A program made the translations under genes and the position numbers. The notes below the pieces were generated by a model, which worked only from the letters and a program-made list of their open reading frames with translations, had not been told where the DNA came from and did no database searches. Below are positions 57,702 through 60,697 of a stretch of 64,000 nt of DNA, one piece after another. Source of the stretch: Deinococcales bacterium (lineage in GTDB: Bacteria; Deinococcota; Deinococci; Deinococcales; JAAFIG01); the NCBI GenBank assembly GCA_025352125.1, contig JANXTZ010000028.1:15922-79921 (forward strand), read 5' to 3'. Every line of letters starts with the position of its first letter. Positions within the stretch are counted from its first letter, which is position 1.

Positions 57702-57783
57702 TACCCTCTCTTGACCATAAACGTGCACCTGGCGGGCATGGTCGCTCATCCCCAACCCTTCTCCCAACATCAGGAGAATGGAG
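57702..57783 (-). mobile_element. REP-like palindrome carrying a 39-nt mini-element (57706-57744)
   Basis: Minus strand: CTCCATTCTCCTGATGTTGGGAGAAGGGTTGGGGATGAG[CGACCATGCCCGCCAGGTGCACGTTTATGGTCAAGAGAG]GGTAG. Confidence 0.8.
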
Positions 57784-57825
57784 TTTAGGTTGCTTCTTTG
57801 AGAAACGAAAATTTATTGCCCCATA

Positions 57826-57895
57826 CCCTCTTTCGCGTAGCGAGAGAGGGTGACGAGCCTCGGCGAGTCGGGTGAGAGCTTCAGGCGAGGTGAGG
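57826..57895 (+). repeat. Second REP-like palindrome (CCCTCT...AGAGGG...GGGTGAG)
   Basis: ACCCTCTTTCGC-gta-GCGAGAGAGGGT hairpin followed by GGGTGAG, in the same intergenic gap. Confidence 0.5.
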
Positions 57896-57935
57896 TTCGT
57901 TATTCTTGCGTAGGAAGTAAGTTTTTGAGGGTTTT

Positions 57936-59075
57936 TCACTTCATGTACCCTTCCCAAACCCGCACGGTCAATTCAGCCAACTCGAGCCTCTGAGATTCAT
58001 TCACAACTCGAGCGTTGTTGTTCAGCATGGGTTGGTTTTCGGGCGCGTTCATCAATTCGGCGATGACCTGAGGCTCGAGGATGGCGGTTGTTTTGATGGC
58101 GGTTGCGAATTGGGTTTGCTCGAGAAATGTTTTGAAAGCGTTGCTGAGTTCTTGTGGCGTCACACCAAAAACTTCGGCGGCGCTCGAGTATTCTTCAGTT
58201 GCACCTTCGATGTTCCAAGCCAGCGTTGCCTCGAGTGCGATGGTCACGGCGACCCCATGTGGAATGTGGTACAACGTACCGAGCGCGTGACCGATGCAGT
58301 GCGCGATGCCCGTGCCGCTGTTGTCTATCGCCAAGCCTGCGAGCATGGCAGCTTCCTGCATTCCCGCTCGAGTTTCCAGATTTTCGGGCTGCCGAACAGC
58401 CGTTGGCAAGTGCTGGCGAATCAATTTCATGGCGTGCAAAGCGTTGCCGCTCGAGATGGCGTTTTTGCGTTTTCCAGTGTTCGCCTCGAGTGCGTGAGAG
58501 AAAGCATCCAAACCTGTTGAAGTGGTAACAAATGCGGGCATGGTCACTGTTACATTCGGGTCAAGAATCACCAAGTCGGGCAGCATCTCGTCGCCCCAAG
58601 TCCAGAGTTTGCGCCCAAAGGTGTCGCTTACGATGCAAGTCCGCGTGACTTCCGCACCCGTGCCACTGGTGGTTGGAATGGCAATGATCGGGCGGCGACC
58701 TGTGAACGGGTTGGCGCACAGCAGATAATGCTCAATCCCCTCATGGGATGCAACGATTGCGGCGACCTGTTTGGCAATGTCGAGCGCACTTCCGCCACCC
58801 ACGCCAACAATCACGGCTCGAGGAAAACTGCGGGCGTAAATTGCGGCGGCATTCACGCCCTCAACGGTGGGTTCACCGGCGGGAATGATGTACTGGGCAA
58901 TGGTCACGCCTGCCAGGGCGTGTTTGAGGGTTTTAATATACTCACCCTCGGCAATCACGGCGTCCACAATCAATACCGCGCTGGCGCGTTCCCAACTTTT
59001 CAAGATTCCAGCCAAACCCGAGAGGTGGTCACTGCCGACCAAAATCCGTGGCGTGCGTCCGATGTCGTAATTCAT
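57936..59075 (-). CDS. Iron-containing alcohol dehydrogenase
   Basis: GVGGGSALDIAK, IPTTSGTGAEVT, DAFSHALE and AHCIGH...HIPHG motifs. Confidence 0.93.
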   Translation of the reverse strand: MNYDIGRTPRILVGSDHLSGLAGILKSWERASAVLIVDAVIAEGEYIKTLKHALAGVTIAQYIIPAGEPTVEGVNAAAIYARSFPRAVIVGVGGGSALDIAKQVAAIVASHEGIEHYLLCANPFTGRRPIIAIPTTSGTGAEVTRTCIVSDTFGRKLWTWGDEMLPDLVILDPNVTVTMPAFVTTSTGLDAFSHALEANTGKRKNAISSGNALHAMKLIRQHLPTAVRQPENLETRAGMQEAAMLAGLAIDNSGTGIAHCIGHALGTLYHIPHGVAVTIALEATLAWNIEGATEEYSSAAEVFGVTPQELSNAFKTFLEQTQFATAIKTTAILEPQVIAELMNAPENQPMLNNNARVVNESQRLELAELTVRVWEGYMK

Positions 59076-60577
59076 ACCGTGCTCCCGTGCAACTCGAGCC
59101 AGGTGGTTTTGAGTTGCGTGTACTCCTCGAAGGCGTGAAGGCTCTTGTCGCGTCCAAAACCTGATTGCTTGTAACCACCGAACGGCGCGTTGACGCTGGT
59201 GTGGTCAAAAGCGTTGATCCAAACCGTGCCAGCCCGCAGCCGCTTGGCGGCAAGATGCGCCTGGTTGATGTCGTTGCTCCAGATCGCCGCCGCCAGCCCG
59301 TACTCGCTGTCATTCGCAATCTGAATCGCTTCCTCGAGCGTGTCAAATTCGATGCAGACCAGCACCGGTCCAAAAATTTCTTCGCGAGCGACCCGCATGT
59401 TGTTGGTGACATTCTCGAGGACGGTGGGTTGAATAAACACCCCACCAGATTCTTGCAAGACTTGCGCCCCGCCAATCGCCACACTCGCGCCCTCTTGTTG
59501 CCCCAGCGCAATGTACTCGAGCACCCGTGAACAATGCTCAGGAGAAATCAACGCCCCCATTTCGGTGCTCGGGTCGAGCGGATCGCCTGGTTTGAGGCGT
59601 TCCGCCCAAGGTTTCAACAGCGCCATAAACTCATCGCGCAAACCACGCTCCAAGAGCAACCTCGAGCCAGCATTGCAACTCTCGCCTTGGTTGTACCAGA
59701 TTGCGTAAGCCACGTACATTGCGGCTTTCTCGAGGTCAGCATTGCGCGTGACAATGTGCGGACTTTTACCGCCAAGCTCGAGTCCGATGCGTTTGATGTT
59801 GGATTTGGCGCTGTACTCGAGAAATTTCCTGCCGACCTCAGTGCTGCCTGTGAACACGATCACGTCCACGTCTGGGTGCATTCCGAGTGCCTGCCCAGCA
59901 ATGTGCCCAAGTCCCGTCACGACGTTCAACACGCCATCAGGAATGCCCGCCTCTTTTGCCAGTGCCGCCAGTTTCAACGCCGAGAGCGAGCTTTGCTCCG
60001 CAGGTTTTAAGACCACACTGTTGCCCGCCGCCAGTGCAGGTCCAAGTTTCCAAGCCGTGATAATCAACGGATAATTCCAGGGCACAACCGCGCCCACCAC
60101 CCCTATCGCCTCTCGAGACACCATCACCAAACTCGAGTTTCCGTTCGGTGCAATCTCGTCGTACATCTTGTCAATGCACTCCGCGTACCATTGAATGGTA
60201 TTCGCACACGAACTCGCGTCCACATTGACGCTTTCCTTGATCGGCTTGCCCGTGTCCAGCGTCTCGAGCAACGCCAATTCTGCCAGATTTTCGCGCATCA
60301 AATTTGCCCAGTTCAGCATGATGCGTTTGCGTTCCGTCGGTTTTAAATCCCGCCAAACACCGCTCTCAAACGCCGCTCGAGCCGCCCTGACCGCCACATC
60401 CACATCCGCAGCATCACACGCCGCAATCTGCGCCAAATGTTTGCCCGTCGCTGGGTTGATGCGTTCAAACGTGCCCCCAGAAATTGCATCCACAAAATGC
60501 CCGTCAATAAAAGCTCGAGTCTCGAGTTTGATGTCTTTTGCGTACTGCTGCCAGTTTGTATCCGTGATGATGTTCAA
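59072..60577 (-). CDS. Aldehyde dehydrogenase, PuuC-like
   Basis: VPWNYP, FTGSTEVG, LELGGKSP, YNQGESCNAGSR and EEIFGPV motifs; TTG start at 60577 after CAGGAG. Confidence 0.92.
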   Translation of the reverse strand: MNIITDTNWQQYAKDIKLETRAFIDGHFVDAISGGTFERINPATGKHLAQIAACDAADVDVAVRAARAAFESGVWRDLKPTERKRIMLNWANLMRENLAELALLETLDTGKPIKESVNVDASSCANTIQWYAECIDKMYDEIAPNGNSSLVMVSREAIGVVGAVVPWNYPLIITAWKLGPALAAGNSVVLKPAEQSSLSALKLAALAKEAGIPDGVLNVVTGLGHIAGQALGMHPDVDVIVFTGSTEVGRKFLEYSAKSNIKRIGLELGGKSPHIVTRNADLEKAAMYVAYAIWYNQGESCNAGSRLLLERGLRDEFMALLKPWAERLKPGDPLDPSTEMGALISPEHCSRVLEYIALGQQEGASVAIGGAQVLQESGGVFIQPTVLENVTNNMRVAREEIFGPVLVCIEFDTLEEAIQIANDSEYGLAAAIWSNDINQAHLAAKRLRAGTVWINAFDHTSVNAPFGGYKQSGFGRDKSLHAFEEYTQLKTTWLELHGSTV

Positions 60578-60616
60578 AATAATCTCCTGAATTTTAGATT
60601 TCTGTTTTTTGTTTTT

Positions 60617-60697
60617 CTCCCTTCTCCTGATGTTGGGAGAAGCGACCATGCCCGAAGGTGCATTTTATGGTCAAGAGAGGGTCGGGGATGAGGGTAG
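60617..60697 (+). mobile_element. REP-like palindrome carrying a 37-nt mini-element (60643-60679)
   Basis: CTCCCTTCTCCTGATGTTGGGAGAAG[CGACCATGCCCGAAGGTGCATTTTATGGTCAAGAGAG]GGTCGGGGATGAGGGTAG. Confidence 0.8.

Follow-up and report, generated by a model that had tools for sequence, protein, structure and literature searches.

Probable separate insertions of a small hairpin element into two copies of one palindromic repeat in a Deinococcales genome

The part of the window (the whole stretch of 64,000 nucleotides that was analysed) considered here contains a gene for an iron-containing alcohol dehydrogenase (Fe-ADH) and a gene for an aldehyde dehydrogenase (ALDH), flanked by two copies of the same palindromic repeat, each of which is interrupted by a mini-element (Table 1). 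We refer to the two interrupted repeats as hosts A and B. As described in the original prediction, the hosts are inverted around the two genes, and this arrangement is real: the genes were recognized with Pfam, and a repeat search recovered the host arms as inverted repeats of 26 nt (at 96%) and 28 nt (at 86%), located about 2.8-2.9 kb apart. Judging from the letters upstream, the ALDH gene probably starts with the TTG at position 60577, which is preceded by AGGAG, whereas the longer ATG frame in the list of open reading frames (to 60649) would extend into the site-B repeat. A second kind of palindromic repeat is also present in the window, where it is vacant, and at other genomic copies of this repeat (C7:63426, C81:13539 and C34:199534) an element was found in the loop.

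Table 1. Positions of the genes, host repeats and mini-elements in the window.
Feature	Coordinates	Strand	Remarks
Host repeat copy A, 5' part	57745..57783	-	Hairpin CTCCATTCTCC..GGGAGAAG then GGTTGGGGATGAG; ends GGGGATGAG
Mini-element copy A, 36 nt, CGACCATG..ATGGTCAAGA	57709..57744	-	After GATGAG; nhmmer C34:73630-73665, E 6.6e-10
GAG between element A and host remainder	57706..57708	-	Same as the GAG preceding element A
Host repeat copy A, 3' remainder GGTAG	57701..57705	-	Sequence read directly
Second kind of palindromic repeat, CCCTCTTTCGC..GCGAGAGAGGGTGACGAGCC..	57826..57879	+	Without element at the window copy
Iron-containing alcohol dehydrogenase (Fe-ADH)	57936..59075	-	Pfam PF00465, 112 bits; PF25137, 103 bits
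Aldehyde dehydrogenase (ALDH)	59072..60577	-	Pfam PF00171, 571 bits
Host repeat copy B, 5' part	60617..60642	+	Hairpin ending GGGAGAAG; G005 orthologue has identical loop, no element
Mini-element copy B, 34 nt	60643..60676	+	After GAGAAG; nhmmer C34:76564-76597, E 1.8e-10
GAG tail of element B	60677..60679	+	Last two bases AG repeat the AG preceding element B
Host repeat copy B, 3' remainder GGTCGGGGATGAGGGTAG	60680..60697	+	Own GATGAG^GG position vacant
Decayed GTAG-tagged-type repeat, same spacer as site B	60759..60782	+	Empty in the window

After removal of the element and the adjoining GAG by script, 44 nt are left of each host, and the two agree at 42 of these 44 positions, in line with the near-identity noted earlier. 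The elements themselves had been described as the same. This holds at the level of the family, but the two copies are non-identical relatives of different length, which align with 32 identical columns, 2 mismatches and 2 gaps. The insertion points, read directly and cut by coordinates, do differ as predicted, in that the element follows GATGAG at site A and GAGAAG at site B, each of which is AG^GG in the empty-site form of the two hosts. The GAG downstream of element A may be either an apparent target repeat or the tail of the element.

The two elements belong to a large family in this genome (G000), with 98 full-length copies identified with nhmmer (E <= 1e-3), of which 79 are distinct. The copies are 34-36 nt long with a tail of 2-3 nt, start with a fixed CG and end with a fixed CAAGA. 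A single composite hairpin spans the whole element, and consists of a 6-bp outer stem that varies among the subfamilies yet is kept paired, an invariant inner motif, GCCCG-N(1-3)-AGGTGC, and a T-rich bulge. A scripted count on the alignment of distinct copies showed compensatory changes at all six outer-stem pairs (54 cells), and 95.8% of the cells are paired, as compared with 87.7% in 500 shuffles, none of which reached the observed value. No covariation was seen for the four inner pairs. Folded as DNA, the two window elements are weak hairpins (-4.8 and -5.6 kcal/mol, with z-scores of -2.3 and -1.4), the second of which was folded one base out of the element register. The host repeat module is present in 118 copies. 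With this many copies of both, and with 121 matches to the element core in G000 as compared with 0-2 per genome for a reversed-pattern control, neither the element nor the host module can be explained by chance.

Mapping of all 118 genomic copies of the host showed that both positions used in the window are recurrent targets. Of these copies, 19 are filled after GAGAAG(G), with at least ten different stems among the inserts, and 10 are filled after GATGAG, nine of them with one and the same 36-nt subfamily. All 29 elements have the same orientation as the host repeat, and elements nested inside another element are likewise co-oriented with it in 15 of 15 cases. Insertion is strand-specific, in one orientation only. 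Besides these two positions in the 3' half of the host repeat, elements recur in the loop of the host hairpin, in the loops of other repeats, in the apical loop of the element itself, which gives rise to the nests, and in the anticodon loops of redundant tRNA genes. A preference for host hairpin loops was not supported, since the flanks could be paired in 10 of 93 copies as compared with 8.4 in shuffles, in a crude test that allowed perfect stems only and treated flanks that are interrelated. Only 3 of the 98 copies, identified by eye, are located at CTCGAG.

The base in front of the element is a G in 86 of 88 contexts, and the base before that is mostly A (61) or G (21), less often T (6) and never C, which gives AG in 61 and GG in 21 contexts. 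The preceding dinucleotide usually recurs at the far end of the insert in filled sites. The match is loose, with the GG-preceded contexts ending on GG in six cases and on AG in eight, and with five contexts in which TG precedes the element and is not repeated. Overall, the junction repeats vary from AG, GG, GAG and CAG to a single G or none. The AG at the far end may either belong to the element itself or have arisen by duplication.

Orthologous sites in related genomes provide empty and filled states of the same targets. At site B, three states were found among four congeners: the site is empty in G005 and G003, filled after GAGAAG in G000, where it is 37 nt longer than the empty site in G005, and filled differently in G001, where one copy lies within the loop of the hairpin and a second, from another subfamily, follows GAGAAGG. 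The orthologue of site A in G001 is a repeat without an element, unchanged in place and orientation, and in G005 and G003 the host repeat is wholly missing at this site. Likewise, the orthologues of the GTAG-type repeat next to site B are empty in G000 and G005, contain one element in G003 and an element within an element in G001. Furthermore, one element is plain in G000 (C81:36348), but in G002 and G001 copies from two different subfamilies are nested inside it. For the copy at C9:56511, no orthologue was found. The original prediction had excluded the simple duplication of a composite in favour of independent insertions, and our results agree: two insertion points in the same host mean that the element was inserted separately, and the orthologues of site B in G005 and G003 and of site A in G001 are empty. 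The insertion now seen at site A may have taken place at another locus, although the empty orthologue in G001 argues for this one.

No evidence for an inversion of the 57.8-60.6 kb segment, which the original prediction had raised, was found in the contigs of the sequencing runs. G005 and G003, both of which lack the repeat at site A, have a collinear gene order. Contig joints that might have indicated an inversion, including an opposite-strand joint between 57825 and 60617, were rejected, because their short sides and mismatched contigs identify them as paralogous repeat copies. The inverted pair around the two genes is probably incidental.

We consider it likely that the mini-element, with its core of 34-36 nt and tail of 2-3 nt, is a DNA hairpin that is mobile but non-autonomous, and that the two copies in the window arose when variants of two subfamilies were inserted separately into copies of one repeat that were already in place. 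A possible mechanism, which we put forward tentatively and as something short of probable, is that the element travels as single-stranded DNA with the help of a putative trans-acting nuclease of the HUH/Y1 type. Such a nuclease would recognize the hairpin and the fixed flank and cut within a dinucleotide, like TnpA-REP of E. coli at C^T. TnpA-REP is a monomer that binds one hairpin together with its fixed 5' tag, and on either side of the hairpin it cleaves between C and T (PMC3479197). The bottom strand of our element reads CT(N)TCTT, followed by the hairpin, CG and the host's CT. A piece cut inside AG and joined into a target cut inside AG would leave an apparent AG...AG repeat without any true duplication, and to this extent a cut-and-join reaction similar to that of the REP/RAYT systems fits the junction sequences.

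The search for the enzyme covered 13 Y1 loci (three in G000, six RAYT-model loci in relatives and four in genomes of the sister family f3), and at none of these does an element adjoin the gene. The flanks of the RAYT loci in G005, G004 and G003 were read and contain GTAG-tagged repeats. As for the three Y1 genes in G000, one is IS200-like with an internal TGA, one is degenerate without the HUH motif and one is a fragment at a contig end; nothing scored above the RAYT-model cut-off and no TnpB was found in this assembly, which is 92.5% complete. No match to PF01797 was obtained in G142 (95% complete), which has 16 copies of the element. Candidates for an autonomous parent were also considered and rejected. 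Inverted element pairs flank an MFS transporter gene within 168-nt inverted repeats in G134, and are located at an IS fragment and inside the frame of a Tn3 transposase in G142 and G140, with no Y1 gene enclosed in any of these. The right end of a truncated IS200-like copy on C60 has nine bases in common with the start of the element, which we take to be due to chance.

Several other explanations can be thought of, both for the arrangements in the window and for the way in which the element moves. The genome is a draft of 84 contigs, and the public contigs of runs with this DNA end inside element copies, which might suggest that one or both junctions were created in the assembly from collapsed or mis-joined short repeats. 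We find this hardly credible, because the same types of junctions recur at many loci in G000 (the 16-mers over the four window junctions occur 8, 4, 3 and 1 times) and in related genomes that were assembled separately. In Logan contigs from four runs of one study, two of which are possibly the source of this DNA, the exact contigs match the window on both sides with no other letters; they break inside the element copies and extend past three of the junctions by 24, 25 and 30 letters, fewer than the 31 that the rule for a crossing requires, and the fourth is crossed by none of the exact pieces listed. A different view is that the junctions are correct, but that the arrangements are mosaics created by recombination or conversion among the repeats, or composites that spread whole, rather than insertions in situ. 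In line with this, nearly all copies of the GATGAG composite contain a single subfamily, so that it may also have been propagated whole or passed from repeat to repeat by conversion. Another composite of repeat and element in G000 (C7:35495) is entirely missing in four congeners, with no intermediate that has the repeat only, and the junctions of the loop-inserted form at site B in G001 are the same as those at C35:191357 in G000. Yet site B is empty in G003 and in G005, where the loop is identical, and otherwise filled in G001, the site-A repeat in G001 is vacant, a single position has received many different stems, and copies of different subfamilies are nested within one orthologous element. 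For these reasons, we think it improbable that mosaics or spreading composites account for the window.

It is also conceivable that the element acts as RNA, either as a regulatory hairpin or in the manner of an intron, and is excised or used once it has been transcribed; the copies in anticodon loops would then be accounted for. With introns allowed, ARAGORN identified inserts of 37 nt in a tRNA-Arg (position 38; C5, c[4173,4286]), of 73 nt in a tRNA-Leu and of 119 nt in a tRNA-Arg on C35, and a 77-nt tRNA is restored when the 37 nt are cut out by script. However, two of the interrupted genes are located in the tRNA array on C5, and intact genes are available for both isoacceptors, at C5 and C29 for Arg(tct) and at C35 for Leu(tag). 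The element occurs in both orientations relative to tandemly arranged neighbour genes (30 same, 24 opposite), a scan of positions 57000-61500 against Rfam gave no match at E <= 1, and bacteria are not known to splice such inserts. Taken together, this makes an RNA role extremely unlikely. More serious is the idea that the element is mobile without a Y1/HUH nuclease, either by means of another enzyme or because replication or repair copies the hairpin into G-ended sites through microhomology of 1-3 nt, to which we assign somewhat less than an even chance. The variable junction repeats resemble microhomology, no Y1 gene adjoins an element, and G142 has copies of the element and no Y1 match. The orientation of the elements is also unbiased relative to the local GC skew (50 versus 48), a weak control given that just 55% of the genes are co-oriented with the skew. 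On the other hand, the strict strand specificity speaks against this route, as does the combination of a fixed inner motif and fixed ends with a covarying stem, which is the mark of recognition by a protein specific for sequence and structure, and here too a candidate enzyme was not found.

A mobile DNA hairpin inserted in separate events, the reading that we prefer, invites comparison with other small repeats. Like REPs and BIMEs with their RAYTs, which are imperfect palindromes of 20-40 nt, our element is a short, mostly intergenic hairpin of high copy number, in which the flanking bases are fixed and compensatory changes maintain the stem. The action of TnpA-REP described above also illustrates that a single hairpin can be the unit for a monomeric nuclease cutting inside a dinucleotide on either side. 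In contrast to the REPs, there is no GTAG or CGTC tag at the ends in the alignment of the 79 distinct copies, the other strand of which reads TCTTG..., and the element flanks none of the RAYT genes examined, whereas in a REPtron the RAYT gene lies between the repeats that it serves. Unlike REPINs, in which an inverted doublet is the replicating unit, the element has no such organization: full-length copies within 200 nt of each other form five direct pairs and one inverted pair, and the nests are all direct. The element also differs from REPs by inserting into GTAG-tagged repeats and into itself. The insertion of REPs within other small palindromes has been reported (PMC3733652).

With the IS200/IS605 family and their miniature derivatives, the PATEs, the element shares a strand-specific insertion, and it may also resemble them in a single-strand, hairpin-guided transposition and in insertion 3' of a short fixed sequence without true duplication. 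These elements have two distinct subterminal hairpins and a target of 4-5 nt, whereas ours has one hairpin and a target of 1-2 nt, and the IS200-like genes in G000 are broken or cut off and not accompanied by TnpB. DDE-type MITEs have terminal inverted repeats of 15-30 bp and duplications of fixed length, as opposed to arms of 6 nt and a variable junction repeat. The inserts in the tRNA genes differ from archaeal bulge-helix-bulge and group I introns in that they are copies of a dispersed element and that the isoacceptors are present in intact form as well. By description only, there is a likeness to the small dispersed repeats (SDRs) of heterocyst-forming cyanobacteria, a different phylum, which are very small, mobile and nested, with a shared hairpin in some. 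SDRs are reportedly 21-27 nt long, nested in one another, in some cases share a hairpin, and are said to be confined to the Nostocaceae; no enzyme is known to mobilize them. For SDR5, insertion at the hyper-abundant palindrome HIP1 has been reported (PMC5861425). Closer in taxonomy, the small noncoding repeats (SNRs) of D. radiodurans, from the same order, number in the dozens and comprise 295 copies of at least nine types with an "unusual, mosaic structure" (Makarova et al., 1999, as cited in PMC1978522). The likeness is again one of description only, and nested mini-elements would yield such mosaics. A full-text literature search, which was not made by sequence motif, gave no account of the element or of nested mini-hairpins in the Deinococcales.

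In a survey of 364 genomes, each of the 18 others from the same bacterial family was found to have the core motif, in 1-316 copies. In the sister families it was found in 8-172 copies in some f3 genomes and in 3-6 copies in four f2 genomes, and most of the 111 genomes in a large genus, also in a sister family, have one copy of the strict core or none. Some complete genomes of a sister family have only 9-13 copies of the element.

It is, in large part, still unsettled how REP-like and other very small repeats multiply in bacteria, and ideas on where mosaic repeat clusters come from are usually derived from one genome at a time. In the present case, a single intergenic spacer compared in four related genomes displays its targets empty, filled once and filled more than once. 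The comparison provides exact junctions, a target rule (after a G, mostly AG, in one orientation) and evidence of repeated independent hits by different subfamilies, and mosaic repeats can thereby be read as a testable series of insertion steps. For genome annotation, the inserts matter since they can lengthen open reading frames across upstream repeats and mask tRNA genes from default finders. A hairpin of 34-36 nt with fixed ends is also a defined substrate for the search for an enzyme. One hypothesis, about which we are doubtful, is that the element represents a separate class of ultra-small, single-hairpin transposable DNA, with a putative partner enzyme of its own that is neither a RAYT nor of the IS200 type, that it selects targets by a match of 1-3 nt to its own tail, and that its nesting builds the mosaic repeats of Deinococcus. 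If this were true, the low copy numbers in some complete sister-family genomes would make a study at the bench feasible.

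The two host palindromic repeats of the window, the REP-like sites A and B, each carry an inserted hairpin mini-element, and direct reading of the sequence confirmed the original prediction of near-identical hosts interrupted at two different points. After excision of the element and GAG by coordinates, the hosts, 44 nt each, were identical at 42 of 44 positions. Judging by their alignment (32 columns alike, two mismatches and two gaps), the two elements belong to one family and are not the same copy. The hosts are inverted, as had also been predicted, and lie about 2.8-2.9 kb apart, enclosing the Fe-ADH and aldehyde dehydrogenase genes. 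All four neighbourhood genes (4/4) are on the minus strand, and the repeats occupy intergenic spacers. For the aldehyde dehydrogenase, the frame in its longest form begins with an ATG at 60649, within the repeat and element. Translation more probably starts from the TTG at 60577, which has an AGGAG in front of it, and thus repeats can inflate predicted gene starts here.

Features of the two interrupted host repeats in the window
Feature	Position	Strand
Site A host repeat, hairpin to GGGGATGAG	57745-57783	minus
Site A element, 36 nt	57709-57744	minus
Site A GAG	57706-57708	minus
Site A last five bases of host repeat	57701-57705	minus
Site B host repeat, hairpin ending GGGAGAAG	60617-60642	plus
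Site B element, 34 nt, relative of copy A	60643-60676	plus
Site B GAG	60677-60679	plus
Site B rest of host repeat	60680-60697	plus

A profile built from clear copies of the element gave 171 matches at E <= 1 in the genome of the window (G000), of which 98 were full-length at E <= 1e-3, and the additional half-matches were element copies split by nested copies. The 79 distinct sequences share one plan, in which CG and a 6-nt arm lead into GCCCG-N(1-3)-AGGTGC; two or three variable bases then come before TTT, the second, complementary arm and AAGA. In the consensus fold the arms pair with each other and GCCC with GG.GC, leaving an apical loop of 3-4 nt. Compensatory changes were observed at 6/6 outer pairs (54 cells; for example AT, CG and TA at one position), and the four inner pairs were invariant. 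Paired cells amounted to 95.8%. Shuffling the partners 500 times gave 87.7%, and no shuffle (0/500) reached the observed value, a figure that is no probability since the copies are mutually related. As isolated DNA hairpins the window copies were of modest stability, at -4.8 kcal/mol (z -2.3) and, for the second copy, which was folded one base out of the element register, -5.6 kcal/mol (z -1.4). A search of the window-site region against Rfam gave no match. The most variable alignment columns among the 79 distinct copies, 13-14 and 21-23, differ between otherwise identical copies; they correspond to the 1-3 apical-loop bases just before the self-insertion point and to the 2-3 bases after AGGTGC, and footprints of departed nested copies may be one possible cause.

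Collecting the genomic copies of the host repeat and mapping the insertion points, as the original prediction had proposed, yielded 118 copies of the host 3' module in G000, which were classed by script. Most were empty (87), while 19 carried an element after GAGAAG(G), 10 after GATGAG and 5 between the hairpin arms; by eye, the last group comprised two true loop insertions and three nested arrays after GAGAAG. Both 3' positions were filled in four host copies by eye, three of which were flagged by the script. Among the 19 inserts after GAGAAG(G) there are no fewer than 10 different stems, a diversity that one ancestral composite cannot explain. After GATGAG, 9/10 inserts come from one 36-nt subfamily, for which composite spread, conversion between repeats or a subfamily-specific target are possible explanations.

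The target rule was derived from 88 distinct flank contexts. The base preceding the element was G in 86/88, and the second base upstream was most often A (61), otherwise G (21) or T (6), and never C. With AG before the element, AG followed CAAGA in 29 contexts and one extra base then AG in 24; with GG before it, GG came afterwards in 6 and AG in 8, and the five contexts with TG had no repeat. Compared to the empty site, the ambiguity is 2 nt (AG) at site B and 3 nt (GAG) at site A. These junctions would fit a 2-nt duplication, a cut within the dinucleotide, or the insertion after AG of an element that itself ends in (N)AG. Element orientation is absolute: copies adjoining the host module run in the same direction as the host (29/29), nested copies in that of the host element (15/15), and every copy in another kind of palindromic repeat, tagged with GTAG, lies on the strand opposite the tag. 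The hexamer CTCGAG abounds in coding as well as non-coding DNA (window 57500-61500, all contigs), and 3/98 element copies directly follow it.

The spacers at both sites could be aligned with those of congeneric genomes. At site B, the repeat is free of the element in G005, where the loop is identical, and in G003, where it is different; the G000 site has the element after GAGAAG and exceeds the empty G005 site by 37 nt. In G001 it contains two copies, one in the hairpin loop (+36 nt) and one of another subfamily after GAGAAGG (+40 nt). About 100 nt beyond site B, in the same spacer, a GTAG-tagged repeat has no element in G000 and G005 and a single one in G003; in G001 it holds an element with a second nested inside. 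At site A, G001 has an element-free repeat with a different loop at the same place and in the same orientation, and another repeat occupies this place in G005 and G003. The element at C81:36348 is plain in G000; in G002 and G001, one and the same point of its apical loop has received nested copies from two different subfamilies. These comparisons support insertion rather than mosaic shuffling at these sites. The earlier reading of independent insertions is likewise supported, the orthologous site-B repeat being empty (G005, G003) or otherwise filled (G001). Furthermore, a repeat-plus-element composite at C7:35495 is found in G000 and is absent in four congeners, so that the hosts themselves have been gained and lost, and composites may at times arrive as a unit.

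Non-mobile explanations, to which we assign the smaller remaining share of our confidence, are largely excluded by these orthologous sites. Inversion of the segment between sites A and B (57.8-60.6 kb), for which a check in reads had been proposed, found no support: joints seen in public contigs derive from paralogous repeats, and the genes follow a collinear order in G005 and G003. Public contigs with this DNA break inside element copies, and the junctions were not crossed by the criterion of the tool; an assembly artefact is unlikely, because the junction types recur within G000 and in separately assembled genomes.

The element core and its 3' half were searched for in 364 genomes, with a reversed pattern as control (0-2 matches). 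There were 121 core matches in G000 and 1-316 in each of the other family genomes (18/18), 8-172 in some genomes of the sister family f3 (G140, G141, G104, G142, G134, G072, G044) and 3-6 in four genomes of the sister family f2 (G358-G361); most of the remaining genomes had 0 or 1. The same plan with other arms occurs in high-GC genomes. The complete sister-family genome G134 contains 168-nt inverted repeats (C1, locus L028, 2356-2523 and 4583-4750; 92% complementary) with an element in each, enclosing an MFS transporter gene, an inverted pair around genes that resembles the one in the window. At G140:C6:583-3366 (L031), the frame of a 928-residue Tn3-type transposase is open despite two internal element-core matches. 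The G000 assembly breaks at four contig starts (C18:1-287, C19, C20, C65) owing to the end of a multi-copy IS1-family element, an end also found at C4:8510-8795 (L012). The insA-like frame of this IS1-family element opens with 32 nt of close resemblance to the mini-element (nhmmer E 7.5e-6), and the first residues of the frame are thus encoded by element-like DNA.

Genes for tRNAs are also targets. At C5:700-4500 (L009), 17 tRNA genes share one strand within about 4.5 kb. Allowing introns in ARAGORN added two genes to this array, for tRNA-Arg and tRNA-Leu, which are split within the anticodon loop by inserts of 37 and 73 nt, respectively; C35 likewise gave a tRNA-Arg with a 119-nt insert. A 77-nt tRNA was regained once the 37 nt were excised by script. 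All three inserts are element copies. Intact genes exist for Arg(tct) and Leu(tag) as well, so that the insertions look like tolerated hits in spare genes and not like introns.

What the data demonstrate is that a structured unit of 34-36 nt inserts strand-specifically, at selected sites and repeatedly. The machinery we infer, and by analogy REP/RAYT, the TnpA-REP type of transposase, would be the best model for the mechanism. A study on E. coli TnpA-REP describes a monomer that binds a single hairpin plus a fixed tag 5' of the hairpin foot, cleaves at CT steps, between the two bases, on either side of the hairpin, and is capable of strand transfer (PMC3479197). The bottom strand of the element reads CT(N)TCTT, hairpin, CG, then host CT, and if both the moving piece and its target were cut inside CT, rejoining them would generate an apparent 2-nt repeat as seen. 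However, the element has no GTAG tag, and none of the 13 Y1 loci examined had an element beside the gene; the RAYT loci of the genus with examined flanks had GTAG-tagged repeats there. In G000, the IS200-like genes are damaged, no RAYT-model match exceeded the cut-off and no TnpB was found; G142, which is 95% complete with 16 element copies, had no Y1 match. Nor does RAYT presence track copy number within the family (in G011 a RAYT accompanies 8 copies; G012, with 108 copies, had no match that exceeded the cut-off). For these reasons we consider a Y1/HUH route rather doubtful, and movement by some other route a serious possibility, if short of probable. A 217-residue Y1-like protein with the HUH motif and a low-complexity insert between this and the C-terminal motif is encoded at C54:97870-98523, minus strand (L040:1870-2523), between truB-like and MoxR-like ATPase genes; in G009 and G012, GTAG-type repeat doublets occupy the corresponding place of its homologues.

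Very small nested mobile repeats are reportedly present in cyanobacteria. The present element works most like a REP but departs from REP/REPIN-RAYT systems in three defining features, namely the tag, which is not GTAG, the REPtron arrangement and the doublet organisation. Insertion of REPs into other small palindromes has been recorded, as have REP-like families without a tag in D. radiodurans (PMC3733652) and "mosaic" small noncoding repeats of this species (PMC1978522); a full-text literature search found no description of the present element. The interest of the finding is moderate and lies chiefly in the multi-state orthologous spacer, which yields clean natural before/after pairs; mobility has seldom been documented so directly for such repeats.
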